A stretch of DNA of 64,000 nucleotides from NCBI RefSeq assembly GCF_030013205.1, contig NZ_CP122648.1. One strand, written 5' to 3'. This document shows positions 4,716 to 56,242 of the stretch, piece after piece. The position numbers were made by a program, and so were the translations under genes. This DNA comes from Escherichia coli. Lineage in GTDB: Bacteria > Pseudomonadota > Gammaproteobacteria > Enterobacterales > Enterobacteriaceae. Under the pieces are notes generated by a model, which had not been told where the DNA came from, did no database searches, and worked only from the letters and a program-made list of their open reading frames with translations. The first letter of the stretch is position 1; the number at the start of each line of letters is the position of its first letter.

Positions 4716-4934
4716 TCAGGCGGAAAGCTGCGTCACCTTCAACGCCCTGAAATGTGTCATTCCCAGCTCTTCCAGCCCTTCGGCTGCGCGGCGTATGGCT
4801 TCGCCCGGTCCCGTTCCGTATACCGTTGCATGTGCATGTTTGGTTAACCCACGTTTATTAACGGCATAACCCAACACAAAGAAACGTTTTTCACCACTGC
4901 CATTATTTTTACGGGATGTTGAACGGGTTTTCAT
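4716..4934 (-). CDS. hypothetical small protein, 72 aa
   Basis: ORF track; start overlaps upstream stop (ATGA), suggesting translational coupling. Confidence 0.45.
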   Translation of the reverse strand: MKTRSTSRKNNGSGEKRFFVLGYAVNKRGLTKHAHATVYGTGPGEAIRRAAEGLEELGMTHFRALKVTQLSA

Positions 4935-5119
4935 TTCTTCACCTTTACCACTGATGCTGTGAGTTCTTCTTCTGGCAACTGATATTTCGGCGCAATTTCT
5001 TCCGTATACCTGATAGCGTCCCTTGCCGCTTTTCCTTTTGATTTATATTTATATGTGGTCCGGTAGTTTTCTTCCTCTCCTGTTACCACATTACGCAATT
5101 TAATATGAATCTCGTACAT
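4931..5119 (-). CDS. hypothetical small protein, about 62 aa (start at MYEIH)
   Basis: ORF track 4931..5149; internal ATG preceded by GGAGGGG and placed 2 nt after upstream stop. Confidence 0.4.
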   Translation of the reverse strand: MYEIHIKLRNVVTGEEENYRTTYKYKSKGKAARDAIRYTEEIAPKYQLPEEELTASVVKVKK

Positions 5120-5121
5120 CG

Positions 5122-5304
5122 TTACCCCTCCATGATTTTTACTGCGCATTTGTGGGTTAATCGCCCCTGTTCATTCGTGCGGCTGTACTCCATGCGGCTG
5201 GCAGCACGCAGGGCATCATCACAGGTCTGATATTCCCTGACATGAAAAAACTGACGAACGTCGCCGCTCTGGCAGTTAATCAGGGTGATAAGGAGCTTAA
5301 ACAT
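5122..5304 (-). CDS. hypothetical small protein, about 60 aa (MFKLLITLINCQ...)
   Basis: ORF track 5122..5382; ATG overlaps stop of upstream 57-aa ORF (ATGTTTAA). Confidence 0.4.
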   Translation of the reverse strand: MFKLLITLINCQSGDVRQFFHVREYQTCDDALRAASRMEYSRTNEQGRLTHKCAVKIMEG

Positions 5305-5470
5305 TGCACGCCTCCCGGATACGAATACGGGCAACAGAGACCAGACGGGATGCCGGAAGCAGGGCGCGCGCTTCGCGCTCACTGGCGGCGGTAACGGTAT
5401 GAAGGCGGATATTTTTACCGTGGCACTGCATAAAGCGCCAGATAAAATCAGGGCGTGTTGATATAGCCAT
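5297..5470 (-). CDS. hypothetical small protein, about 57 aa (MAISTRPDFIWRF...)
   Basis: C-terminal part of track ORF 5297..5824; ATG preceded by AAGGAG; upstream part of the track ORF judged noncoding. Confidence 0.4.
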   Translation of the reverse strand: MAISTRPDFIWRFMQCHGKNIRLHTVTAASEREARALLPASRLVSVARIRIREACNV

Positions 5471-5594
5471 TTTGGCGGCTCCTTTGTCTAATTTACGGAG
5501 TCTCGCCAGCACGCTGCTAAACATGGTGGCGGGACGTAACAGGGTTAGCAGACTGGTGACAAAGAAACCAGCAGGCCTTACGGCCTCCCCATTA

Positions 5595-5718
5595 CGCCCC
5601 GCCATAATACGGGAAAGGGTGGTATTACGGGCACAAAAAAACCGCATTACGGAAATATAGCGGCTACCCGCTTTGTCAATCAGGCTGCTAAACCCGGCAC
5701 CCGCTTTATGAGGTGCGG
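5595..5718 (-). ncRNA. conserved three-block noncoding element, copy A (hairpin, then T7-terminated block, then ATTATGGCGGGGCG on minus strand); candidate sRNA or leader attenuator
   Basis: blocks CGCCCCGCCATAAT, GCACAAAAAAACCGC and CAGGCTGC.AAACCCGGCACCCG.TT..TGAGGTGC recur in same order and similar spacing at 59946-60075. Confidence 0.4.
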
Positions 5719-5865
5719 GCAAACGATACGCCATGACAAAAAAGCGAGTCAAGCAATATTGCAAATTATTTTTGCGTGATTGCGCTGAGTAATTGATTTT
5801 TAAGAGTAAAAAAGCCATAATCATTTCTGCCTATTATTTCTTATTGTTGGTTTCAGGTGCACTAA

Positions 5866-5925
5866 ATGCACATCCTTGACTGGTTGGCTCGCTAGCTTTA
5901 GCGAGCTTCTTTTTTGCTCTGCAGC
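5866..5925 (+). terminator. two stem-loops (GTGCA-CTAAA-TGCAC; GCTCGCTAGCTTTAGCGAGC) followed by TTCTTTTTT; intrinsic terminator or sRNA 3' end
   Basis: seen in sequence; no convincing ORF on plus strand upstream. Confidence 0.45.
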
Positions 5926-6377
5926 CAGTACCCGGCCTCCTTCCCTCACATGTAGTCATGTGCTCATTCCAGTCAGGTGGATAATGCTGTATTACCGGAC
6001 ATCCGGTTATGATGTTTAAAGCGTTTGTTTGTTTATGCCACGTGGAGAATATACCCACGCCGCCATTACTTGTATTTATCATAACAGTTCATCCAATTCG
6101 GTTAATGTAACCGGAATAACTCAATTTCATACACTGTAAATAAATGCTGATTTTAAACTTAGCTCCTTGGAATATATTTCTTACGTGTGACGTACAGGTG
6201 AAAATATCCCTCTGATAGTCCATTTTCTTTTATTGGGTCACATCTTTTTACTCCGGTTCCCTTAACAAGGGTAGAGCATCTTTTAAACCATGAATGCATC
6301 TTTGGTTAAGTGATGTTTCTTATTGAATGAAATGTTTAGGCGCATATCGCGCCATGCTGACTATAAAGTGAAAATAA

Positions 6378-6599
6378 TTAAGCCTGAAAACGTTGTTGTT
6401 TTCTTTCTTCTATCCAGTCGATAATTTCCTCTTCAACCCATGCAACCGCACGAGGGCCTATTTTTATTGGTTTGGGGAATATATCCGATTTTATATCTTC
6501 GTAAATTCGAGCTCTCGATCTCCCTGTGATTTCAATGACTCTGGGGAGTCTTATTAATTTTTGAATCCGCCTTTCGCTGGTCTGTGAGTATGCTGACAT
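6378..6599 (-). CDS. alpA: AlpA-family transcriptional regulator / excisionase-like (prophage CP4-57 AlpA type)
   Basis: 73 aa; helix-turn-helix region ...RLPRVIEITGRSRARIYEDIKSDIFPKPIKIGPRAVAWVEEEIIDWI... typical of AlpA. Confidence 0.8.
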   Translation of the reverse strand: MSAYSQTSERRIQKLIRLPRVIEITGRSRARIYEDIKSDIFPKPIKIGPRAVAWVEEEIIDWIEERKQQRFQA

Positions 6600-7152: not shown

Positions 7153-7198
7153 TGAGTTTAATTCAGCCGCTTGGGGTAGTTTAGTTTGTTGAGTTGAT

Positions 7199-8461
7199 TC
7201 AGTTTGTTTCGTTAGCCCATTTAAAATCATAGGGGGCAATATATGCCGTCTTGCAGGTGTCGAGATAATCAGCCCACCATTGCAACATTCGGCGGCGTTC
7301 CTGCATATGTTCAGCTCTGTGAACGTATGCAGCCCGGACACTGCCTCTTTCCCTGTGACTCATCTGAAGCTCAACGGCTTCTCTTGTCCACCTGCCTGAC
7401 TCTGTCAGCGCCGAACAGGCCATGGCCCTGAATCCGTGACCACAAATATCTTTTTTGGTGTCGTATCCCATGTGGCGTAATGCCTTGTTAATGGTGTTTT
7501 CGCTCATCGGTTTTATCTGGTAATGGTCGCCGGGGAAAATAAACACTTCATCACCGGATATATTTCTTATATCGTCAAGAAGCTGCATGGCCTGAGTGGG
7601 TAAAGGGATGGCGTGAGGGGTCCCCATTTTCGTTCCACGATATGAATATTTTACGCCTTCTATTTTTTCGCGTTCTGCTGGTATTACCCACATTGATTTA
7701 TCAAAATCAATTTCATTCCAACGAGCAAAGCGCAATTCACTTGAGCGAATAAAAATTAATAAATTTAATTTTAGTGCAAATTGCGTTAATAACCGTCCAT
7801 TCATCTTATGGTGGTAATCATTTATTTTGCCAAGTAATTCAGGTAATCGCTCAAGGGGAAGAGCGGGGCGATGTTTGGTTTTATTGGTTTCTATTGCACC
7901 GTTCAGTTCCTGTGCTGGATTGTATTTAATCATTCCATTCTGTACAGCGTAGCGCATAATGGCGTTCATTCGCTGCTTGTTACGAGATGCTGTCTCAAGC
8001 ACTCCTTTATCTTCCATTTTGCGTAAAGGAATCAGTAGATCCATGGTTGTGATCTCGTTAATTGGTCTTTTACCAAGAATGGGGAAGATGTGGTTTTCCA
8101 GGTCTTTTAAGACTTTTTGTGCGTGCAATTCGCTCCAGCCTTTTTTCCGGCTGTGCCACTCTCTGGCAACGTCTTCAAAAAGCACTATTTGAGGTTTTGG
8201 AGTGTGCAGTGGGTCAATGCCTTTAGCCAGGCTCGCCAGATATTCATCACGAGCGTTCCTTGCCTGTGCAAGTGTTACGGCAGGATAAATGCCTAAAGCT
8301 CGGGTCGTTTCTTTACCGTTGATAACCTTGCGAAAGCGCCAGTATTTTGAGCCGTTGGGGTGAACATAGAGATACAGCCCTTTCCCGTCACGAAGTTTTT
8401 TAATTTTGTTGTTGTCCTTATCTGGTTTGGCGTTACGTACAGCTACATCAGTCAGTTTCAT
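7199..8461 (-). CDS. int: P4-type (tRNA-associated) tyrosine integrase
   Basis: track ORF 7199..8503 is labelled '+', but the reverse complement from 8503 reads TTG GTT CGA ... ATG AAA CTG ACT and plus strand at 7199-7201 is the stop; likely ATG start at 8461 (MKLTDVAVRNAKPD...). Confidence 0.9.
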   Translation of the reverse strand: MKLTDVAVRNAKPDKDNNKIKKLRDGKGLYLYVHPNGSKYWRFRKVINGKETTRALGIYPAVTLAQARNARDEYLASLAKGIDPLHTPKPQIVLFEDVAREWHSRKKGWSELHAQKVLKDLENHIFPILGKRPINEITTMDLLIPLRKMEDKGVLETASRNKQRMNAIMRYAVQNGMIKYNPAQELNGAIETNKTKHRPALPLERLPELLGKINDYHHKMNGRLLTQFALKLNLLIFIRSSELRFARWNEIDFDKSMWVIPAEREKIEGVKYSYRGTKMGTPHAIPLPTQAMQLLDDIRNISGDEVFIFPGDHYQIKPMSENTINKALRHMGYDTKKDICGHGFRAMACSALTESGRWTREAVELQMSHRERGSVRAAYVHRAEHMQERRRMLQWWADYLDTCKTAYIAPYDFKWANETN

Positions 8462-38954: not shown

Positions 38955-39095
38955 TTACTGCTTACACTGTAAGAACGCCGCAAACTCCGCTCCCCAGAAA
39001 CTCATCCGTATTTCGCACAGCGAACCGTGCAACATCCAGATGATGAGGATTACCGTCACGCAGAACGTGATGGCTGTAAGCGATTTTTGCGACAT
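38955..39095 (-). CDS. Hok/Gef-family type I toxin-like peptide, 46 aa (not in ORF track)
   Basis: hand translation MSQKSLTAITFCVTVILIIWMLHGSLCEIRMSFWGAEFAAFLQCKQ; AAGGAG 8 nt upstream; N-terminal TM helix plus SLCE and AAFL motifs as in HokA. Confidence 0.5.
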   Translation of the reverse strand: MSQKSLTAITFCVTVILIIWMLHGSLCEIRMSFWGAEFAAFLQCKQ

Positions 39096-39285
39096 AGCAC
39101 TTGCTCCTTTTCCGGAGAGGCGCTAACCTTTCACTTGCTTAGGGTAGACGGTTAGGGCCTCGGTTAAACAAAAGTGTTTTCCGGGGCCTTTCCACATCTG
39201 GCCTTCGGGTATTCCCTCCGACCATCAGCCGAAAGGCACCCGCGCGTAATCTATCGCTTTTTTGTTACTCCGGCAATTCTGCTTG

Positions 39286-40880: not shown

Positions 40881-41990
40881 TCACTCTGTTTCTGCTATCC
40901 ATTCCGGGATTTTTGCCTCAAGCTCAAGCTGTGTGGTAAAGCCGCTGTTATCAATGGTGTGCTCGGCTTTCGCAATAATCCAGTCCTGATTATCAATCTC
41001 GCTTTTAAATCCTGTTACCGTGCCATGCATTTCGGGGTAGAGTTCTGCACGTCCACGCACCAGCGTGATGGAAAACGATGCGGCTCCGCGTTGTAGCTGC
41101 TGCCACTTTGCCGCCGCTGCGCGTCTTGCTGCCTGCTCGTTCTGATAAGTCTTGCGTAACACAAACACATTGCCTTCCGCGCCTTCCATATAATCACCTT
41201 CACGGCTGCTGCTTTTCTCCTTTTTGGGTTTTGGCGGTTTGCGGCGTTTCACGCTGACTTTTTTCTTTTTCCCGTAATTAAGATCAAGCCAGTAAGCGCG
41301 TACCCCCGTATACGCCTCGCGGTCAGCAATGCGGAACTGATGGCGATCGCCGCTGCTGCGTGTGATGGCGAACGATGGCAACGGCTGGCCCTGTGCGTTC
41401 ACGCCACCGCCGGGCATGATGAATAACAGATTACCGCTTTTTACCGTGGTGATTGCGCCCAGCATTTCCGCCATGCGCGTAAGGAAGGACATGTCGCTTT
41501 CTTCAGTCTGGTCGGCGTGGTCGATTTCGATATCCATCAGCATTTCGCTGATTTGCGGTTTCAGGCCGTACCGATGAGCGATGGCGGATACCACACGTTC
41601 AACGGTCACATCATGCCAGGACGCCTCACGTTTAACATTAAATTCATCCCGAAAATCTGCGCTTCTGGCTGAAACAGTCAGCCTGTCCGGCGGTCCTTCG
41701 TGAGCGATTTCATCAATAATGTAAGTGCCTTTTTCTGTCAGCGGTTCCCCTTTCCAGCCAATGAGAACCGTCAGACGCGCGCCCCGTGGCGGTAGCTGCA
41801 ACTGGCCATCGGCATCATCCAGCGTGATGGTGAGCTGGTCCGCCTCAAATCCCCGGTTGTCGGTCAGTGACAGGCTCATCAGGCGTTCTGCCACGCCGGA
41901 CAGCGTTTTACCCTCGGCGAGAATATCAAAATCCGGCATTTTCACGGGGTCTGTGCCCTGACTGAGCAATTGCATGGTGGTGTCGGTCAT
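40881..41990 (-). CDS. D: P2 gpD-like tail protein (late control D)
   Basis: similarity to P2 D (LSLTDNRGF..., DGPPD, RSADFRD); start chosen at ATG 41990 with GAGGGA RBS, track ORF extends to 42122. Confidence 0.85.
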   Translation of the reverse strand: MTDTTMQLLSQGTDPVKMPDFDILAEGKTLSGVAERLMSLSLTDNRGFEADQLTITLDDADGQLQLPPRGARLTVLIGWKGEPLTEKGTYIIDEIAHEGPPDRLTVSARSADFRDEFNVKREASWHDVTVERVVSAIAHRYGLKPQISEMLMDIEIDHADQTEESDMSFLTRMAEMLGAITTVKSGNLLFIMPGGGVNAQGQPLPSFAITRSSGDRHQFRIADREAYTGVRAYWLDLNYGKKKKVSVKRRKPPKPKKEKSSSREGDYMEGAEGNVFVLRKTYQNEQAARRAAAAKWQQLQRGAASFSITLVRGRAELYPEMHGTVTGFKSEIDNQDWIIAKAEHTIDNSGFTTQLELEAKIPEWIAETE

Positions 41991-42147
41991 CTGTTCCCTC
42001 CCTGTGCGGCATGGTCGCATGTGCGTGCGGAGGGGGTTACTGCTTTTTGTTGTCGCCGTGGCGGGAGAATAGCGCAGGGGTGAGATTACGCGCGTGGTGG
42101 GTGATGATTGTTGCTGAATCATTTAACGGATACAAGGGGCTGAAGCT

Positions 42148-43332
42148 ATGAGTGAAACTCGTTTTCATGGTGCCCGTGTTACGGAAAATACCGACCTGGT
42201 AACAGCGATTAACGATGTTGATTCCAGCGTTATCGGTATCGTGGCAACGGCGGATGATGCGGACGCGAAGCTGTTCCCGCTGAACAAGCCCACATTGCTG
42301 ACCCGCGTCAATGACGTGCTGGGAAAATGCGGAACAACGGGGACGCTTTATCGTGCGCTTAAGGCCATCGCAGACCAGGTGAGCACAAAGGTGATCGTCG
42401 TTCGCGTGGCTGAACACAAAGAAGAAGACGGAAAGACGCAGGATCAACTGGTTATCGGTGGTTCTGAGGATGACGGCAGCTATACGGGGATGTATGCGCT
42501 GCTTGTTGCAGAGCAGGATGAAAGCATCGGATACCGTCCGCGTATTCTGGCCGCGCCGGAGCTGGACACGGAGGCTGTAACAAAATCCCTGTGCGTGATT
42601 GCAGGTAAACTGCGCGCGTTTGTGTATGCCTCATGTCACGGCTGTAACACGATGGCTGAGGCGATTACCTACCGCCAGAAATTCAACGAACGTGAGGTGA
42701 TGCTCTTATGGCCGGACTTCATCGCCTACAACCCGAAAAGTGGCAAAAACGAAACGTTCCCCGCGCCTGCCTATGCGTGCGGCCTTCGTGCGTACATTGA
42801 CCATGAGCAGGGCTGGCACAAATCGCTGTCCAACGTTCCGGTTAAAAATGTGCTGGGGATGTCCAGGCATGTGTTCTGGTCGTTGCAGGCCGAAGACAGT
42901 GATGCCAACAGCCTCAACAACAAAGAAATCACGACCATTATTCGTCGCAACGGGTTCCGCTTCTGGGGCAACCGCACACCGGAAACGAACGCCTACATCT
43001 TTGAGGTGTATACCCGAACCGCACAGGTGCTGGCTGATTCAATTGCGGAAGCGCAGTTTGAAACCATCGACAGTCCACTGACGCCTGCGAACGTGAAAGA
43101 TGTTATCAGTGCCATCAGGGCAAAACTGGATTCACTGGTTACTGCCGGGAAACTGATTGGGGCGTCGTGCTGGTATGACGTGGTGGATAACGGCACCACG
43201 AATTTACGTCAGGGGCGCGTGCGTATTCGCTACAAATATACGCCTGTTCCCCCGCTGGAAGACATGGAGCTTTACCAGTCGTTTACTGATGAATTCTTTG
43301 GTCCCGCATTTGCGGTGCTGGGAGGTGCCTGA
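42148..43332 (+). CDS. FI: P2 FI-like tail sheath protein
   Basis: 394 aa contractile tail sheath sequence. Confidence 0.9.
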   Translation: MSETRFHGARVTENTDLVTAINDVDSSVIGIVATADDADAKLFPLNKPTLLTRVNDVLGKCGTTGTLYRALKAIADQVSTKVIVVRVAEHKEEDGKTQDQLVIGGSEDDGSYTGMYALLVAEQDESIGYRPRILAAPELDTEAVTKSLCVIAGKLRAFVYASCHGCNTMAEAITYRQKFNEREVMLLWPDFIAYNPKSGKNETFPAPAYACGLRAYIDHEQGWHKSLSNVPVKNVLGMSRHVFWSLQAEDSDANSLNNKEITTIIRRNGFRFWGNRTPETNAYIFEVYTRTAQVLADSIAEAQFETIDSPLTPANVKDVISAIRAKLDSLVTAGKLIGASCWYDVVDNGTTNLRQGRVRIRYKYTPVPPLEDMELYQSFTDEFFGPAFAVLGGA

Positions 43333-43844
43333 TGGCTGTACCAAAACATCTTCGCTTTTTTACGCTGTTTGTGGATGGTGAAAACGAAGTGGGTAAGGTG
43401 ACGTCCGTCACTCTGCCTAAGCTGACGCGCAAAACCGACAGCTACCGGGGTGGTGGCATGATGGGTGCGGTAAGTATTGATCTCGGTCTGGACGACTCCG
43501 CGCTTGATGCGAGCTTTGTCATGGGGGGCGCAGTTCGTGAGCTGTTCCTTAAGTATGGCGGCACGATTGACGGCACGCTGCTGCGTTTTGCGGGTGAATA
43601 CTACACCGATGCAGAAAGCGACCTGTATGAAGTCGAAATGCGCGGACGTGTGACGGAAATTGATATGGGGGAAGCCAAACAGGGCGAAGCCACATCACAC
43701 ACTTACGCCATTAAAAACACCTACTACAAGCTGAGTGTTAACGATCGCCCGTTGTGGGAGATTGACCTGCTGAACTTCATTTACCGGAAGGACGGCAAGG
43801 ACATTGTGCCCGATCGCATCCGTTCCGCGCTCGGGCTTGGCTGA
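43332..43844 (+). CDS. FII: P2 FII-like tail tube protein
   Basis: 170 aa; start overlaps FI stop. Confidence 0.9.
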   Translation: MAVPKHLRFFTLFVDGENEVGKVTSVTLPKLTRKTDSYRGGGMMGAVSIDLGLDDSALDASFVMGGAVRELFLKYGGTIDGTLLRFAGEYYTDAESDLYEVEMRGRVTEIDMGEAKQGEATSHTYAIKNTYYKLSVNDRPLWEIDLLNFIYRKDGKDIVPDRIRSALGLG

Positions 43845-43899
43845 TAAGTAATATGCAGGCGGCGCAGTGCGTCGCCTCTGACTGAAAAGGAGACAACTG

Positions 43900-44274
43900 A
43901 TGAAAGACATCGATACTGAAACCCGGAATAACACCGTGGCGGATGATGTGACGGCAGGTGAGGATATGGCTGTCGAACATGGCGTAAAACTGACCCGACC
44001 AATTGAGCGTGGTGGCGAAAAAATCACGTATGTGGAGATCACCGGGGCTATTGAACAGGCTGGATCCCTGCGTGGTCTGTCGCTGTCTGATGTGCTGAAT
44101 CTGAAAGCGGATACCATGTTCACGCTGTTGCCTCGCGTGACCTCGCCACGACTGGATGAAGTGATGATTAAAAAAATGTCGTCACGCGATTTTATTCAGT
44201 TGTGCGCTGTGGCTGTAAATTTTATGAGCGAGCCAGACTCTGGCGCGAAGAGCGTGCAGGAGACGGCAGCGTAA
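43900..44274 (+). CDS. E: P2 gpE-like tail assembly chaperone
   Basis: 124 aa; position between FII and tape measure. Confidence 0.8.
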   Translation: MKDIDTETRNNTVADDVTAGEDMAVEHGVKLTRPIERGGEKITYVEITGAIEQAGSLRGLSLSDVLNLKADTMFTLLPRVTSPRLDEVMIKKMSSRDFIQLCAVAVNFMSEPDSGAKSVQETAA

Positions 44275-44438
44275 TCACCCTGGTGTGCTTTGAGCACATC
44301 GAAGATCTGGTGGCAGATATCGCCGCCATTTTTAACTGGTCGCCCGCCGAAATCTTCATGATGACGCCCGGCGAAGTGGTTAGCTGGCGTGAGCGGGCGG
44401 CACTTCGCAGCGGGAATGCAGACAATGAAGACTCTTGA
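44202..44438 (+). CDS. -1 frame extension (E'-like) overlapping E 3' end and T start; candidate programmed frameshift product E+E'
   Basis: open -1 frame across the E/T junction; candidate slippery heptamer AAATTTT near 44217-44223. Confidence 0.5.
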   Translation: MRCGCKFYERARLWREERAGDGSVITLVCFEHIEDLVADIAAIFNWSPAEIFMMTPGEVVSWRERAALRSGNADNEDS

Positions 44439-47232
44439 CATCCGGGTCGCTTTCAGCGCCGTTGACAGGCTGACCCGGCCTGCCGAAAACGCCCGCCGCC
44501 TGATGGGGCAGTTTGGTGACTCCATCCAGCGAACGCAGGGGGCGATCAAAAATCTCGAGCGTCAGGCGCGTTCATTTGAGCGCGCCCGTGACGCTGTCAG
44601 TAAAGCGGATGCTGGCATATTGAAAGCACGACGCCAGCTTAACGCCCTTAATCAGTTACAACGCACGGGTACAGTGCTCAGCGAAAAACAACAAAAGCTG
44701 ATGCAGCAGTTAAGCACCCGGCTTGAACGCCTGAATGAATCGCGCACACGGGAAATTCAGAAAATGCGGGAGCTTGGCGGAGAGCTGAAACGCCACGGCA
44801 TTTCCCTGACAGGCAGCGATAACACCATCCAGCAGGCCATCAGACGCACCGAACAGTACAACAACCAGCTTGAACGCGAACGGCAGGCGCTTGCGCGTGT
44901 AACACGGGCGCGTGAGCGGTATTCGCGCGCGCAGGAAACAGCGGGAAAACTGAAAACAGGTGGTGCGCTGGCAATTGGTGCGGCAACGGCGGGCGGCTAT
45001 GCTGCCGGGCGTTTTTTGCAGCCTGCGATCGGGTTCGGCAAAGAGATGTCCCGCGTTCAGGCACTGACGCGAATCGACAAAAACAGCCCGCAGTTTAAGG
45101 CGCTGCGTGAGCAGGCGTTAAAACTTGGCTCTGAAACACAGTTTACTGCGAGTGATGCCGCCAGTGGGCAGAGCTTTCTGGCAATGGCTGGTTTTACTCC
45201 GCAGGCCATTCAGGCCGCATTGCCCGGTGTTCTTAATATGGCGCTGGCAGGTGGCGTCGAACTCGGCGAGACGGCTGATATAGGCTCCAATATCCTCACA
45301 CAGTTCAACCTGACAGCCGATCAAATGGACCGTGTTGGCGATACGCTGACAGCAGCATTCACCCGGACCAATACTGATTTACGCGCGCTGGGCGAAACCA
45401 TGAAGTATACCGGTCCGGTTGCCGCAAAACTTGGTATCAGTCTTGAAGAAGCGGCGGCCATGGCCGGGATGCTTGCCAATAATGGTCTTCGCGGAAGCGA
45501 TGCTGGTACGGCCATGCGCGCAAGTCTGTCCCGCCTTGCATCACCGCCAAAAGCTGCGGCTGATGCACTGAAAGAGCTGGGGGTGTCAGTTGCTGACGCC
45601 AGAGGCAAAATGCGCCCGATGGAGGATGTGCTGCTTGATCTCTATAAGGCGACACAAAAATACGGACAGGTGGACCAGGTTTCCTTCTTCAAGGACATCG
45701 CCGGAGAAGAGGCGTTCGTTGGTTTGCAGACGCTTGTTGCGGCGGCTGGTTCAGGAGAGCTGCAAAAACTGACCAGAGAATTGCAGGGGGCAAGGGGAGA
45801 GGCCGATCGCGTCGCAAAAGTAATGGCCGATAATCTTGATGGGGACCTGAAAAATCTCGACAGCGCATGGGAAGGTCTTCGTATTCGCATCAGTGATCTG
45901 GTTGACGGTCCGCTGCGTTCTGTCACGCAGTGGCTCACGCGGGTGCTTGAAAAAATCACCTCGCTGGCGCAGGCCCATCCGGTACTGACGCGCCAGCTAC
46001 TGATAGCAGGCGGTGCGTTGCTGGCAATGACTGCAACGATTGGCTCGTTGTCGCTGGTTATTGGGGTGCTTTACGGGAAGCTGGCCACCCTGCGTCTTGG
46101 TTTTGACATTCTTACCCGGTCAATGAATGTCGTCAGGGTGTTGCCTGCGCTGTGGGGAATGGTGACGGGTTCCGTTTCTTTACTGGGAGGCGCCATCGGG
46201 GCGTTGTTCAGTCCGGTTGGTCTTATCGTGGCTGCGCTTGCCGGAGCTGCCGTTCTTATCTGGAAATACTGGGATCCCATCAGGGCATTTTTTGCCGGGG
46301 TGTTCAGCGGGATTATGGAAAGGCTGACCCCGTTGCGCGAAACCTTTGAACGGTTTGGTCCTGTTTTTGACACAATCGGAAGCGGGATCAGCCAGGTGTT
46401 TAACTGGTTTAAATCGCTGCTGTCACCGATGGAGTCCAGCAAGGAAACGCTGGATAAATGTACCAGTGCTGGCGAGATATTCGGTAACGTTCTTGGCGGT
46501 GCGTTACAGCTTGTTCTGACACCTGCAAAAATGCTACTGGATACGCTGGCGTGGATACTTGAAAAACTTGGCGTCCTTCCGGATGAAGCGGAAAGGGCGC
46601 GCAAGAAAATCGAAGACGCACAGCGTGCGGCCATTCTTCAGGACAAGGTTGTCTTGCTTCAGGGTGACCTGGCGAAAATCAATCCGCCGAAGCCTGTGGA
46701 AAATGGCAATGGCACCGGAGGTAATAAACCCAAAGACAACAAACCGCTCACAGACAGCAATACCGGGACGCTACGCAGACTCAGCAAAATTGCTGATAAC
46801 ACAGGTAAGCTGGTTGATGAGACGAAAAAACGCATTGGCCCCGGCGATATTGTCTTTAAGAACCTGCCCCGCGCACTTGCTGTTCGTGGAGAGTGGCAGG
46901 AGCGGAAGATTGCGCAGGTCAGTAAGCCTGCCCCCGCAATTAATATCACACCCGTGGTCCCGGCTCCGCTGCCTCCGGCGCTGGTCCCTGTTGTTGCGGC
47001 CAGCTCCCGCCCGGTGGCGGAGGCCATACGATCTCCAGTGGCATCAGTTCCTGTAACTTCCCGTAACCGGGAGCCTGTTGCCTCCGGATTTGGTGGTGAA
47101 ATTCATGTTCATCTGCATAACGTTGTTACGCAGAATCCCCGCGAACTGGCGAAACTGGTCGGTGAAATGGTCAGGGCAGAAATGGAACGGCGCGCCCGTG
47201 CCGGGCGTGGCAGTTTTTACGATAAAGATTGA
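44389..47232 (+). CDS. T: P2 gpT-like tail tape measure protein (true start probably 44416 or 44425)
   Basis: 947 aa, coiled-coil and Gly/Ala-rich membrane-like segments typical of tape measure proteins. Confidence 0.9.
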   Translation: MSGRHFAAGMQTMKTLDIRVAFSAVDRLTRPAENARRLMGQFGDSIQRTQGAIKNLERQARSFERARDAVSKADAGILKARRQLNALNQLQRTGTVLSEKQQKLMQQLSTRLERLNESRTREIQKMRELGGELKRHGISLTGSDNTIQQAIRRTEQYNNQLERERQALARVTRARERYSRAQETAGKLKTGGALAIGAATAGGYAAGRFLQPAIGFGKEMSRVQALTRIDKNSPQFKALREQALKLGSETQFTASDAASGQSFLAMAGFTPQAIQAALPGVLNMALAGGVELGETADIGSNILTQFNLTADQMDRVGDTLTAAFTRTNTDLRALGETMKYTGPVAAKLGISLEEAAAMAGMLANNGLRGSDAGTAMRASLSRLASPPKAAADALKELGVSVADARGKMRPMEDVLLDLYKATQKYGQVDQVSFFKDIAGEEAFVGLQTLVAAAGSGELQKLTRELQGARGEADRVAKVMADNLDGDLKNLDSAWEGLRIRISDLVDGPLRSVTQWLTRVLEKITSLAQAHPVLTRQLLIAGGALLAMTATIGSLSLVIGVLYGKLATLRLGFDILTRSMNVVRVLPALWGMVTGSVSLLGGAIGALFSPVGLIVAALAGAAVLIWKYWDPIRAFFAGVFSGIMERLTPLRETFERFGPVFDTIGSGISQVFNWFKSLLSPMESSKETLDKCTSAGEIFGNVLGGALQLVLTPAKMLLDTLAWILEKLGVLPDEAERARKKIEDAQRAAILQDKVVLLQGDLAKINPPKPVENGNGTGGNKPKDNKPLTDSNTGTLRRLSKIADNTGKLVDETKKRIGPGDIVFKNLPRALAVRGEWQERKIAQVSKPAPAINITPVVPAPLPPALVPVVAASSRPVAEAIRSPVASVPVTSRNREPVASGFGGEIHVHLHNVVTQNPRELAKLVGEMVRAEMERRARAGRGSFYDKD

Positions 47233-47238
47233 GGAGTC

Positions 47239-47733
47239 ATGGCCATGATGATGATCTACGGCATGTTTGTTTTTGAGCTGCGCACGCTGCCGCATCAGCA
47301 GTTACAGCAAAACAAAAGCTGGCGGCATGTGAAAAATGAACGCGTTAACCGTTCAGCAAGCTGGCAGTATATCGGTGCAGGTGATGATCGCATCGTTCTT
47401 TCTGGTGTGCTTTATCCTGAAATTACAGGTGGCGAAGTGTCGCTGTCGCTGCTGACCACGCAGGCGTATACAGGACGCCCCTGGCCTCTTATTGATGGCG
47501 TCGGGCAGATTTACGGCATGTATGTCCTGACCGAAACGAATACGACCCGTTCCGAGTTTGATCGCTACGGTAAGGCGAAAAAGATAGAATTTTCACTGAC
47601 CCTTGAACGCTGTGATGAGGATTTGCGGGAGCGCCTGCAATCCTCATCGTTCAGCGATATGCTGTCCGGCTTCAAAGATAAAGTGACATCATCCCTTAAC
47701 AGCGCGGCCAGTTCAGTTAAAGGGCTGTTCTGA
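47239..47733 (+). CDS. U: P2 gpU-like tail protein
   Basis: 164 aa; N-terminus and WQYIGAGDDRIVLSGVLYPEITGG match remembered P2 U. Confidence 0.85.
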   Translation: MAMMMIYGMFVFELRTLPHQQLQQNKSWRHVKNERVNRSASWQYIGAGDDRIVLSGVLYPEITGGEVSLSLLTTQAYTGRPWPLIDGVGQIYGMYVLTETNTTRSEFDRYGKAKKIEFSLTLERCDEDLRERLQSSSFSDMLSGFKDKVTSSLNSAASSVKGLF

Positions 47734-47903
47734 TTTAATGCTGGCCACTCATACCCTCATACCTGGTAATAAGTGGCCAGTCTTAACACTCACCATTTGA
47801 TTGCACCAGTGTTAACGATTTGTTACTGGACATCAGGCACGCTGGATAGCCAGTAGAAACATACCATTAAAATTATTACAATAATTGGTCACATGATTAT
47901 CTT

Positions 47904-48467
47904 ATGCTGAATAATAGAGATATGAATATTAATGAACTTAAAGATTGTATTCACTATGAAGTAATCGGTAGCGAGCGTCCTTTCTCCTGGCGAAAGGCAA
48001 TTGTTCGCGCAATAAAACATAGAAGAGTTCGTTATTTATTTTGGTGGCGCATAGCCAAATACCTTTTTGATAAAGGCGGATACTGTCGGAAGATTGCGGG
48101 GAAAATAGAACGTTTCATTCTTGATAAATATAATGTAACAGTCCCTTTAACTGTAAATATAGGGAAAGGCTTTGATATTTCTTATCTCAACAGTGTTGTT
48201 ATCGGTCACAAAGTAACAATCGGTGAAAATTGTTCAATAAAACCAGGGGTAACTATTGGGCTGCGTGGTGATTTTAATGATATGGATATTGTTATAGGAC
48301 ATAATGTGACCATTGGTTGTAATGCCACCATTCTTGGTGGCAAAGTGCGTATAGGAAACAATGTCACAATAGGTGCTCATGCATTGGTATTGCATGATAT
48401 TCCAGATGATTCAACATTCATCACTAAATTTCAGTCTGAAGTTATCTGCTCGTCCTCCCGCACATAA
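47904..48467 (+). CDS. hexapeptide-repeat acyl/acetyltransferase; AT-rich accessory gene, possible surface-polysaccharide modification
   Basis: 187 aa with repeated [LIV]GxxxxIG hexapeptide motifs; 3' end overlaps tfa by 37 nt convergently. Confidence 0.7.
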
Positions 48468-49048
48468 CCCTGATTCATCAGCTCTGGCCATACGATATCC
48501 GGAGCTGTACTGGTGTCAATTCTACTCACTAATACTCTGTATTTTCTCCAGGAATCCAGTTGTGAATTTTCCTCGTTTGTTGCTATTTCAAGATTAACTG
48601 CATCCTGCAGAATTGCGATGTTATCTGTTGCTTCCTGGATCAACCTTGCCTTTTTCTCTTCCGCTTCCCGTATCCGAAACAGTTTTTCTGCTTCCTCATC
48701 CTTCACCCAGGATACGCCGTCCCACTTCTGATACTCCCCTGCTGGCGACAACCAGGTGACATTCTCTGGTAGCGGTCCGGGTTCAGAAATAAACAACGCG
48801 TCCCCCGATGCCACGTCATAGACCGTTTTACCACGATGGTCTTCAACAATATTCCACGATTCATTTTCACTGTTAAAAACTGCCACAAAGCCAGCAGGAA
48901 TTTCCGGTGGGGCGATATCTGTAGAATTGGCTGGCAGCCCTGTATGAGGTGGAATATATGCGTCACCTTCACCAATAAACTCATTAGTTCCGGCCAGCAG
49001 GTTATAAATTTTTACAGTACGTGATTGTTCACTCATTCTGAATGCCAT
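48431..49048 (-). CDS. G: tail fibre assembly protein (lambda Tfa / P2 gpG type)
   Basis: 205 aa; N-terminus [34 protein letters not shown] matches remembered lambda Tfa. Confidence 0.9.
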
Positions 49049-49400
49049 TATGCAAGCCTCACAATATAATTAAATGCGATGTTTTTAACGGTGTTTTCCG
49101 CGTTACCAGCAGCGTTAACGGTGATGGTGTGTCCATGTGAACCAATCGCAACAGAGTGCGTATGAGCGCCAATAGCTGATTGAGTGTGACGCCATACGCC
49201 CCACGGACCATCAGTGCCATTCCACTTATTGGCGAGTTTACGCATGTATACATTGCCGTCTCTCGTGATAAAACGTTGCGTGCCTGCAAAATTGCCAGCT
49301 GCAAAAACCTCAAGCACACCGACAGCATTATCTTCCGGGAAATTTTTCTCCAGTGTTGCGTTGGTGGATGTTGCTTTAGACCAGATGCCAGTGCATCAGC
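49048..49400 (-). pseudogene. H: C-terminal fragment (about 117 codons) of tail fibre protein (gpH/Stf type), 5'-truncated
   Basis: frame open from stop near 49400 to ...[19 protein letters not shown]; no start codon or N-terminal domain. Confidence 0.75.
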
Positions 49401-50033
49401 GTTCGCATACTTACCCGCGTGCGCCACGGTGTTGTCCATGTTACGGGAGGTCAGCGTCACGTCATTCATAACGCGTTCGCTGGCGTCGGTTCTGATGTGC
49501 TCCAGCCACCCCACGTTAACGTCCTGAAGCAACTTGTTGGTGCTGAAGTTGGACTCATCCGCGTGAGACGTGCCGTTGAAACCGATCATGATTCGGTCAA
49601 GCGCCACCTGTCGGGCAATCTGTGCGCTGATGCGGGACTGAAAATCGCTGTGTGCCGACCAGGCATCAAGCTGCGGATACGAAATAAACGTGTCGTAGTT
49701 CACCTGTTCGCACTGGTATTTGCGGTTTTTCAGATCAACCACGTTATTCGGGTTACGGCGTTTTGTTCCGTCATAACTGGTATTCGTGCGCGCAATCGGT
49801 CCTGTGGTATCCAGGAGGATTTTTTCGCCCTTCTGGTCGGTCACGCCGATCACGTTAATTCTTTTTGTAAATTCGGTGCTTTCCTTTGAGGCGTTTTCAA
49901 AACGCTGCTGTACCGAGGGTTCCACGGTAAATCGCGATACCAGTGCGGAAACCGGGATATTGTTAAGCGACGCCTGCTGCGCCATATAGCAACCCAGCTT
50001 GTTGCGGGTAATATCTGACATCACCAGATTCAT
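49400..50033 (-). pseudogene. N: major capsid protein gpN, N-terminal about 210 codons only, fused out of frame to tail-fibre fragment
   Basis: homology to P2 N (FTVEPSV, NKYxCEQ, IMxGFNG) ends near HAGKYANADALASG; track ORF 49059..50033 continues in a non-homologous frame. Confidence 0.75.
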
Positions 50034-54966: not shown

Positions 54967-55278
54967 TTACTCAGGAAATAACGCCCGGATATTCCCAGCC
55001 ATCTGGCTGGTTATCTTAGCCACTGGTGCAGACTGTGCTTCAAACTTTTTTGAGCTGATTTGTGTCACAGGTAACATCTCATCATCAGCCCATGCGGCCA
55101 GTCGGTAAGCCTCTGCCGGATTCGTCTTCAGAAGTGCCAGCCCGGCCAGAAAAGCCACGCGTTGGCCGCTTTTGCGGGCTTCTGGTGTAAGGCTGTCCAG
55201 CCAGGCGCATGCTTCTCCTTCGTTCTTGACGGCAGCTGGCTTCAGATAGAAACTTATCCGTCTGGTTGGTGTTGTCAT
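54967..55278 (-). CDS. ParR-like DNA-binding adaptor, about 104 aa from MTTPTRRISFYLK
   Basis: resembles remembered plasmid R1 ParR N-terminus (RRTIAFKL...LDSIPQGERSRLNRAALTAGLALY vs RRISFYLK...LDSLTPEARKSGQRVAFLAGLALL); AAGGAG inside parM 3' end. Confidence 0.6.
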   Translation of the reverse strand: MTTPTRRISFYLKPAAVKNEGEACAWLDSLTPEARKSGQRVAFLAGLALLKTNPAEAYRLAAWADDEMLPVTQISSKKFEAQSAPVAKITSQMAGNIRALFPE

Positions 55279-55282
55279 TGGT

Positions 55283-56242
55283 TTACTCCTTGTCCATTGC
55301 GTACAGCCCATTAACCAGAGCAAACTGTGGCACCCCGTCCGCGATGAAAGTCGCATTAACTCCGCAGGCTTCGCGGATAGCGGGTGCCACAATCTCCGCC
55401 CCGCCACCGACAACCATCACCCGCCCGTAACCCGAAAAACCCGCCAGCGCGCGGATCACGCGTTGTTTCAGTGTTTCTTCCTTTTCACGAATAACCGCCA
55501 TCAGGCTGGCGTAATGCGCGTCATTGTGGATGTGCTGGCGCAGCCAGGCTTCATCATGGCGATGTTCGATAATGGTATTGGCGATGTGGTGACTGGTACG
55601 CATACCGTTAGTGGCCATCACCGACAGTACGGCATCGGCCATCAGGGAAACGCCTACGTGTGGATCGCAAAACACCTGGCTGATACCTGCCAGTTGTCCC
55701 TGAACCTTTGCCACATCCAGCGTGGTTCCGCCTAAATCCACAATCAGCAGGGATTCAAACGGACTCATGTCAGCCAGTGCTTTAAAGCCAGCCGGAATGG
55801 ATTCAGGCATAACCCGTACGTTACGGATAGTGAATGCTTCGCCGTTCTGGTACTCCACCGGGCGCATGACGTTCGCTTTTTTGCGGTTGATGTTGGCCAT
55901 GTCCGGCTGTGCGTTTGTGTCGAAATATTCGCTCAGTGGCAGGGTGACAACCACATCCACTTCCTGTGGTGTGATGCCTGATTTGACCAGCGCGTGATGA
56001 ATGGCAATGACATTCACATCGCTGTACTGGTATTGCGTGTCGGTCGTCTGGACAAAGCGATCGCTGACCGGATCAAAACCATAGCGCACGCCATCAAGCA
56101 TGTAGTTCGCGGGCTGCGTGCCACCGAACGGCGCAGACCATTCCGACTTGAAGCTGTTCGGGCTGATGGCGTTGCGGCGTTCGCCGTTCTCAGTCCATGC
56201 CAGCTTGATGTTGGTGGAGCCGTCATCGATACAAATTTTCAT
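55283..56242 (-). CDS. ParM/StbA-like actin-family ATPase
   Basis: 319 aa; N-terminal MKICIDDGSTNIKLAW and LIVDLGGTTLD phosphate-binding motifs as in plasmid R1 ParM. Confidence 0.75.
   Translation of the reverse strand: MKICIDDGSTNIKLAWTENGERRNAISPNSFKSEWSAPFGGTQPANYMLDGVRYGFDPVSDRFVQTTDTQYQYSDVNVIAIHHALVKSGITPQEVDVVVTLPLSEYFDTNAQPDMANINRKKANVMRPVEYQNGEAFTIRNVRVMPESIPAGFKALADMSPFESLLIVDLGGTTLDVAKVQGQLAGISQVFCDPHVGVSLMADAVLSVMATNGMRTSHHIANTIIEHRHDEAWLRQHIHNDAHYASLMAVIREKEETLKQRVIRALAGFSGYGRVMVVGGGAEIVAPAIREACGVNATFIADGVPQFALVNGLYAMDKE

Follow-up and report, generated by a model that had tools for sequence, protein, structure and literature searches.

Between the tail gene U and the tail fibre assembly gene tfa of a P2-like prophage in Escherichia coli lies an AT-rich gene whose product carries the name 'serine acetyltransferase' in both RefSeq and GenBank. 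Which activity does this product have, and what might it do for a prophage that keeps the gene beside its tail fibre? The preliminary description of the locus had proposed an accessory hexapeptide-repeat acetyltransferase that modifies surface polysaccharide and changes receptor availability, as a form of lysogenic conversion and superinfection exclusion. In the following, the gene is termed LbH after the left-handed beta-helix of its product, and the window is the whole stretch of DNA that was analysed (64,000 nucleotides).

The LbH gene and its prophage

Open reading frame calling in the window delivered an intact frame of 187 aa on the plus strand (47904-48467). Relatives with a DNA identity of approximately 85% have not conserved the ATG at 47904. 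Every such relative compared has the ATG at 47922, the N-termini of the homologues coincide with the residue encoded there, and RefSeq annotates this start in a record that is 100% identical. We therefore prefer position 47922, and an extent of 47922-48467 with 181 aa is most likely judging from the sequence comparison (Table 1). The GC content over the gene is 0.36-0.39, compared with 0.52-0.59 for the genes of the tape-measure protein T and of gpU and 0.50-0.55 beyond tfa, which agrees with the initial view of an AT-rich gene between U and a convergent tfa.

The window is chromosomal DNA, and the part of it used as query is 100% identical to strain K_EC180 and several porcine enterotoxigenic E. 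coli (ETEC) strains. The LbH product is RefSeq protein WP_001447286.1 both in the window-identical genome and in strain RIVM_C040348, which carries an intact prophage. LbH DNA was found in 183 of 5,426 complete E. coli genomes, in 156 chromosomal and 59 plasmid places, and additionally in 58 plasmid records, mostly non-mobilisable phage-plasmids of approximately 47 kb. The gene is already annotated in public records, and it is uncharacterised.

Table 1. Features of the LbH locus in window coordinates.
Feature	Position	Strand	Length	Remarks
gpU-like tail protein	47239-47733	+		final gene of the FI-FII-E-T-U block; LbH lies on the same strand
AT-rich spacer, gpU stop to LbH start	47734-47921			contains only a weak terminator-like hairpin
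Surviving part of the cassette	47853-49174			promoter, LbH, tfa and fibre tip
Sigma-70-like promoter candidate	47854-47882	+		TAGAAA-17-TACAAT, TATAAT in relatives; based on consensus match and conservation
LbH (hexapeptide-repeat) gene of serine acetyltransferase fold	47922-48467	+	181 aa	longest open reading frame starts at 47904
Overlap of the convergent genes LbH and tfa	48431-48467		37 nt	
tfa, tail fibre assembly gene	48431-49048	-	205 aa	convergent with LbH; last 15 codons are an extension via a 2-bp deletion
Remnants of the 3' part of tail-fibre gene H	49048-49390	-		49048-49174, extreme 3' end; 49173-49390, internal fragment

The surrounding element is a P2-like prophage inserted beside flk. 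At the same site, the intact relative in strain RIVM_C040348 has the order ogr (minus), a hypothetical gene (plus), D (minus), then FI, FII, E, E', T and U (plus) and LbH (plus), followed by G, H, I, J, W, V, S, R, the lysis genes, X, L, M, N and O (minus) and by P and Q (plus). Since this intact relative shares the arrangement in which U is followed by LbH and LbH converges on tfa, the arrangement is native to the prophage lineage and not a product of decay. Compared with the intact relative, the prophage in the window is defective and has lost approximately 9 kb, namely 1.54 kb inside the fibre gene H and 7.5 kb that reach from the 5' part of H into the 3' part of the capsid gene N and span I, J, W, V, S, R, the lysis genes, X, L and M. 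The deletion junctions are located at 49173/49174 and 49388-49390, and the 1.54-kb deletion left the internal H fragment listed in Table 1. An open reading frame at 49059-50033 (minus) is a chimera of the 5' part of capsid gene N and out-of-frame fibre DNA.

Several further observations concern the layout of the prophage. The block FI-FII-E-E'-T-U (window region 40881-47733) lies on the strand opposite to H-G and D, a layout shared by the intact relative L089, and is thus inverted relative to the gene order of P2. The gpD-like frame at 40881-42122 (minus) comprises 413 aa by open reading frame calling, 266 aa in RefSeq for an identical record and 369 aa in the intact relative; a different start site or a frameshift is a possible reason. 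ParM-type plasmid segregation and partition-stability genes are situated inside the prophage between Q and the replication gene A (54967-56242, minus), as named in the identical RefSeq record. A Hok/Gef family toxin gene and a TagO-like gene were annotated in locus L001 between flk and the prophage ogr (38961-39101 region).

The gene tfa was assigned by its match to the PHROG family 'tail fiber assembly' (E 7e-94). Its overlap of 37 nt with LbH, as first described, was recovered to the nucleotide. In the closest divergent lineage, tfa ends with DIVWPEL and a stop codon 10 nt past the LbH stop, and gaps of 10-45 nt separate the two genes at more distant loci. In the lineage of the window, a 2-bp deletion removed the usual tfa stop after WPEL, and tfa gained 15 codons by which it extends into the 3' end of LbH. 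Because this extension is created by a lineage-specific deletion and other lineages have gaps, the overlap is, as judged by comparing the sequences, an accident of one lineage and not a conserved design. A regulatory role of the overlap was considered and rejected for the same reason, and no functional meaning can be attached to it. The sole match in an Rfam search was below threshold: IS009 (RF02111) matched in full length at 48507-48705 (minus) with 80.8 bits against a gathering score of 117. This match is located wholly inside the tfa coding sequence and probably reflects tfa-derived sequence in the Rfam seed or coding homology, not a separate RNA gene.

Fold and active site of the LbH product

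The Pfam search that the preliminary description had recommended resulted in two matches to Hexapep (PF00132; E 4.4e-6 and 1.8e-5), far beyond chance. The protein also matches phrog_2154, a PHROG family of 'unknown function' (E 4e-79), and its best sequence matches in the PDB are serine acetyltransferases (SATs; E 6e-12). An AlphaFold (AF2) monomer model calculated with 126 sequences reached a pLDDT of 96.2 and consists of four N-terminal helices followed by a left-handed beta-helix. With this model, the top 47 Foldseek matches in the PDB were all SATs, with E-values down to 4e-8 and TMq mostly between 0.62 and 0.77. It replaced a first model from 22 sequences with a pLDDT of 72 and a poorly folded helix, for which Foldseek gave no useful match (best E 0.26). 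The left-handed beta-helix acyltransferase fold proposed for the gene product thus stands, and the modelling shows a predicted short SAT architecture of helices plus beta-helix. The protein is soluble, as it has no hydrophobic or membrane segment; the maximum Kyte-Doolittle mean over 19 residues is 1.06. On this ground, and in the light of a missing PF01757 match, an integral-membrane O-antigen acetylase of the Oac/OafA type (acyltransferase_3) was rejected. None of the anti-phage defence families modelled in PADLOC was matched.

A SAT-like fold raises the question of whether the gene encodes a genuine CysE-like serine O-acetyltransferase, that is, an auxiliary metabolic gene that boosts cysteine synthesis. 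The database name and the nearest solved structures favour this. However, the NCBIfam model cysE (TIGR01172) gave 70.5 bits against a cut-off of 210.65 and PRK11132 (NF008349) 44.2 bits against 397. The cut-offs were also widely missed for the two exopolysaccharide enzymes that show the best NCBIfam similarities, EpsC (NF041874; 80.7 bits against 150) and WcaB (TIGR04016 type; 62.2 against 196 and 59.8 against 194.65 bits). In the SAT of Neisseria gonorrhoeae, the active site is formed by Asp96, Asp161 and His162 of one subunit together with Asp147, Glu170, Arg196 and His197 of its neighbour, and His162 and Asp147, equivalent to His158 and Asp143 in E. coli, constitute the catalytic dyad (PMC8786284). 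In an ungapped HMMER alignment with this enzyme, all aligned active-site residues are replaced in the window protein (D147T, D161S, H162Y, E170H, R196M, H197D), which, moreover, has 181 aa, compared with 240-290 aa for SAT chains, and is devoid of their longer N-terminal part and their C-terminal tail.

An identity with CysE, EpsC or WcaB was rejected on the basis of these scores and residues, and a function as a true serine acetyltransferase is extremely unlikely. The protein resembles CysE (PDB 6wye/7ra4, 1t3d, 4n69) in its helical N-domain plus beta-helix, in its best sequence and structure matches and in the position of the active-site cleft, but it does not have the catalytic dyad, the serine-binding residues or the C-terminal tail, and it is carried on a prophage fibre cassette. 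With the short SAT-like enzymes EpsC and WcaB it shares the size class of 160-190 aa and, as far as its His-type relatives are concerned, the inferred sugar-polymer substrate. It differs from them by the replaced histidine, the sub-threshold scores and the phage context instead of a polysaccharide locus. As a practical consequence, the label 'serine acetyltransferase', which has been propagated through databases and papers, is supported neither by active-site residues nor by curated family cut-offs.

A xenobiotic or antibiotic acetyltransferase of the Vat, CatB, Maa or LacA type was also considered in view of a weak similarity at the hexapeptide level. The respective models delivered 22-31 bits against cut-offs of 300-475, with 22-28 bits for Vat and CatB, the architecture is SAT-like and not XAT-like, and the catalytic histidine is missing, so that this assignment, rejected like that of CysE on scores and active site, is barely conceivable.

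How unusual the replaced histidine is became apparent from the wider family, for which 126 representatives were taken from a library of 1.84 billion proteins. Tyr88 of the window protein aligns with SAT His158/His162, and Thr73 is found in place of the Asp/Glu partner. Column 88 is occupied by His in 119 representatives, by Tyr in six (five from the clade of the window protein and one other) and by Asn in one; the partner column is less strict, with Asp or Glu in 76 of the 126. Among phage records and IMG/VR loci (88 sequences with the column), homologues of at most 52% identity all keep the histidine and its Asp/Glu partner. Tyr and Thr occur together in all E. coli-type copies (at least 90% identity, 40 loci) and in Hafnia phage yong2 (53%). 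The Tyr clade is narrow, since only four representatives reach E <= 1e-30. Its scaffold is kept essentially whole, including the conserved Gly, Ala and Asn positions (R43, the glycines, N103/128/147, A152, D159, P161), and among the best-conserved columns the clade departs clearly with Tyr in place of His88 and Pro in place of Gln108. Differences also occur in several columns of lower conservation (60-78%). His96, the equivalent of Glu170, is found in the E. coli subclade and is Leu in the Hafnia-type subclade, and it is therefore not a general replacement of the base. To our knowledge, every characterised O-acetylating LbH enzyme uses this His as base. The earlier assumption of an active O-acetyltransferase thus loses its support, given that the general base of most relatives is Tyr and the acidic partner is Thr in the window protein.

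Despite the missing catalytic residue, the gene is retained. Within the Tyr clade, pairs of sequences have a dN of approximately 0.036 at a dS of approximately 0.7, resulting in a dN/dS of approximately 0.05, and the reading frame is intact in all 38 completely recovered copies with at least 85% identity. The Tyr-clade protein is consequently kept and functional. A functionless hitch-hiker that decays alongside the tail-fibre cassette might be suspected from the lost catalytic residues and the residence in a defective prophage, but the selection values, the intact frames and a Tyr that is conserved down to 53% identity make this very unlikely, and a decaying pseudogene was rejected.

Strong purifying selection on a protein with Tyr and Thr at these positions would point to either of two modes of action, an acyl transfer that is independent of His or a binding without catalysis. 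His-independent transfer is represented by a base-less class of sugar N-acetyltransferases, for example QdtC and WlbB. According to the second mode, the trimer would be a pseudoenzyme that only binds and changes the envelope without acetylation; it might sequester a nucleotide- or lipid-linked sugar precursor, or co-assemble with or block a host LbH enzyme. The loss of His88, the only polar residue that is fully conserved in the family, together with its acidic partner and Q108, with the scaffold residues kept, is in line with such a pseudoenzyme, as is the purifying selection, which implies that a function persists. On the other hand, the Gly/Ala pattern of the C-terminal coils is kept and fits cofactor binding as well as mere folding, and the base might have moved to His96 in the E. 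coli subclade, though not in the Hafnia-type subclade. We consider the pseudoenzyme a rather unlikely explanation; regarding the two modes as such, we lean slightly towards a retained but altered transfer over binding without catalysis.

Linkage to the tail-fibre tip

DNA homology between different phage backbones starts approximately 70-280 nt upstream of the LbH start, comprises LbH and tfa and ends approximately 650 nt inside the fibre gene. In intact relatives, the cassette extends over the same approximately 650 nt of the fibre gene, which correspond to the receptor-binding tip. Carriers of the cassette are P2-like prophages, phage-plasmids and other myovirus-type contigs. The left edge of the shortest homology between unrelated backbones (47853) coincides with the -35 element of the promoter candidate, whose -10 element is a perfect TATAAT in relatives.

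The convergent order of LbH, tfa and fibre gene recurs in a phage-plasmid of 47 kb and in vB_EcoM-613R2, an isolated phage whose copy is 99.4% identical and accompanied by the same fibre tip, in Hafnia phage yong2 and metagenomic relatives, in Citrobacter phage phiNP and in the P1-like phages JL22 and Ro157c2YLVW. After clustering the LbH proteins of the recovered loci at 80% identity into 31 lineages, a tfa or tail-fibre gene on the opposite strand was seen to end no more than 400 nt from the LbH stop in 15 lineages, an association expected by chance in a few per cent. Other family members adjoin int or repressor genes. The association with tail-fibre genes is therefore strong and non-random, and it fits the receptor-related role that had been suggested for the gene. 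Morons of many kinds cluster at the 3' side of tail-fibre genes, and for this reason linkage alone is no proof of a receptor function. P2 itself has an accessory slot between G and FI (Z/fun), which likewise harbours an AT-rich, non-essential gene directly after the tail-fibre assembly gene of a P2-like phage; its protein is unrelated, however, and the inverted FI-U block makes U the neighbour in our case.

Allele exchange is documented by two IMG/VR prophages (L046 and L047) that have the P2-like backbone of the window prophage, 93-95% identical on both sides. Their LbH allele is of the His type and 52% identical, and it is accompanied by a different tfa and a different extreme fibre tip (4797-6490 relative to L009). 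As LbH, tfa and tip differ together on the same backbone, we conclude that the LbH allele is exchanged jointly with the fibre tip. The accessory status assigned to the gene at the outset is borne out by its low GC content, the promoter-like site that moves with it and the allele swaps in one backbone; deviant composition, conserved site and allele variation would characterise LbH as a phage moron, as far as this can be read from sequence.

In phage JL22 (L007), inverted repeats of 602 nt with 99% complementarity (2327-2928 and 7189-7790) bound the cin-invertible C segment, and the LbH homologue (5022-5498) is located inside this segment on the strand of the silent Sv'-U' genes. An inversion would therefore place LbH downstream of the expressed fibre operon. 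In the window, neither inverted nor direct repeats flanking the LbH gene were found, so that there is no invertible segment at this locus. The authors of the JL22 genome state that the reason for the gene's presence is not known (PMC9603915), and the phiNP paper lists the gene only under 'fitness' (PMC6456863). A full-text literature search for functional studies of family members found none; the gene is merely listed. As far as can be judged from the literature covered, the loss of His in one clade under strong selection, the gene being part of an exchangeable fibre-tip cassette and its position inside a P1-type invertible segment are apparently new. Phage-borne LbH acetyltransferases and fibre-adjacent morons as such are kinds already known.

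The position downstream of gpU raises the possibility of a late-expressed phage factor for tail-fibre assembly or modification, such as fibre acylation or an aid to trimeric assembly, instead of a lysogen function. LbH is located on the same strand as gpU, 188 nt downstream, and the only structure found between the two genes is a weak terminator-like hairpin (47709-47727) that overlaps the end of U. Given this arrangement, late-phase expression through gpU read-through may occur. One orientation of the JL22 C segment, with LbH downstream of the fibre operon, is also compatible with a late factor, and no convincing terminator was found. In contrast, the gene has its own conserved promoter-like site, and in 15 lineages it converges on tfa or the fibre gene instead of sharing their orientation. 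It has stayed intact in a prophage despite the loss of fibre, baseplate and capsid genes, an orphan copy exists beside a transposase fragment, and other members lie beside int or repressor genes. Because LbH is convergent with the fibre operon in these lineages and survives the fibre deletion, a role in virion assembly is quite unlikely.

The orphan copy (P0015; 4602-5147 of locus L090) is of the Tyr type, 54% identical and chromosomal, and it lies beside a Transposase_mut fragment, away from any tail genes. Such a copy may have been left behind when the phage was lost.

Possible role in the lysogen

We consider it nearly an even chance that LbH is a receptor-linked lysogenic-conversion gene, with a chemistry that is probably altered in the Tyr clade. 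According to this model, the gene would be an autonomous moron belonging to the tail-fibre-tip module of temperate myoviruses, and its product would modify or hide the surface glycan that the linked fibre either uses or has to get past. Such a change might protect the lysogen from related phages and the progeny from re-adsorption. Since the gene is exchanged with the receptor-binding tip and its chaperone, masking of a surface glycan would be the most economical role. The substrate class, expression in the lysogen and an effect on adsorption are the parts of this model that we infer.

With regard to the substrate, it is most plausible that the His-bearing relatives transfer acetyl groups from acetyl-CoA to an envelope sugar. 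A His-type relative with 41% identity (P0055; 6001-6561 of locus L096) is the last gene of a nonulosonic-acid biosynthesis cluster that comprises a dehydratase, a DegT aminotransferase, a PglD-like protein, NeuB, a NeuC-like epimerase, an NTP-transferase and a CMP-synthetase. This cluster, the similarity to EpsC and WcaB and the precedent of NeuO are the reasons to suggest envelope-sugar acetylation by the His-type ancestors. Non-phage relatives occur in mixed contexts: one of the six looked up was found in a recognisable glycan gene cluster, with most contigs being short or mixed. The fibre tip contains HxH motifs, which are typical of fibres that may bind a protein or the LPS core and not a polymer open to acetylation.

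A precedent is NeuO, an LbH enzyme that O-acetylates capsule and is encoded by a prophage (PMC3046976). Like LbH, this polysialic acid O-acetyltransferase of CUS-3 is a soluble beta-helix protein encoded by a prophage beside a receptor-binding gene, and it provides the paradigm of lysogenic conversion by such proteins. In contrast to the window protein, NeuO keeps the catalytic His and Trp, and its gene has a phase-variable heptanucleotide repeat. A comparable repeat is absent from the window gene, where TRF found only a 16-nt repeat outside the gene. The similarity between the two proteins is distant (PDB 2wlc, E 0.0024 over 49 residues). The generalisation that phage acyltransferases of this family typically modify polysaccharide rests on other enzymes, namely the distant NeuO and Oac, the latter a membrane protein with another fold.

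Receptor-blocking genes linked to receptor-binding genes are represented by llp of T5, which is next to oad, and by cor of phi80, N15 and HK022. Their resemblance to LbH lies in the physical linkage of receptor masking with the receptor-binding gene and in the exchange of both together. Unlike the cytoplasmic enzyme-fold product of LbH, they encode small lipoproteins or membrane proteins that act on FhuA. A more far-reaching version of the receptor-linked model regards LbH as a catalytically rewired or dead SAT-fold protein that is conserved under strong selection and acts as the 'immunity partner' of a particular fibre tip, which would block the cognate receptor in a non-canonical manner, by precursor sequestration or by poisoning of a host LbH enzyme, and not by O-acetylation. 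This version is doubtful in our opinion, and we are equally reserved about its second part, according to which the protein would form a unit with receptor-binding domain and chaperone that is swapped among P2-like, P1-like and plasmid prophages.

The loss of His under purifying selection would offer a clean natural test case of how an LbH enzyme acquires a different chemistry or turns into a binding protein. Should the LbH product alter the receptor of the linked fibre, the tail-fibre cassettes of enterobacterial prophages carry their own exclusion function. This, if true, would bear on host-range prediction, on serotype and surface changes in ETEC and other E. coli and on the design of engineered fibres.
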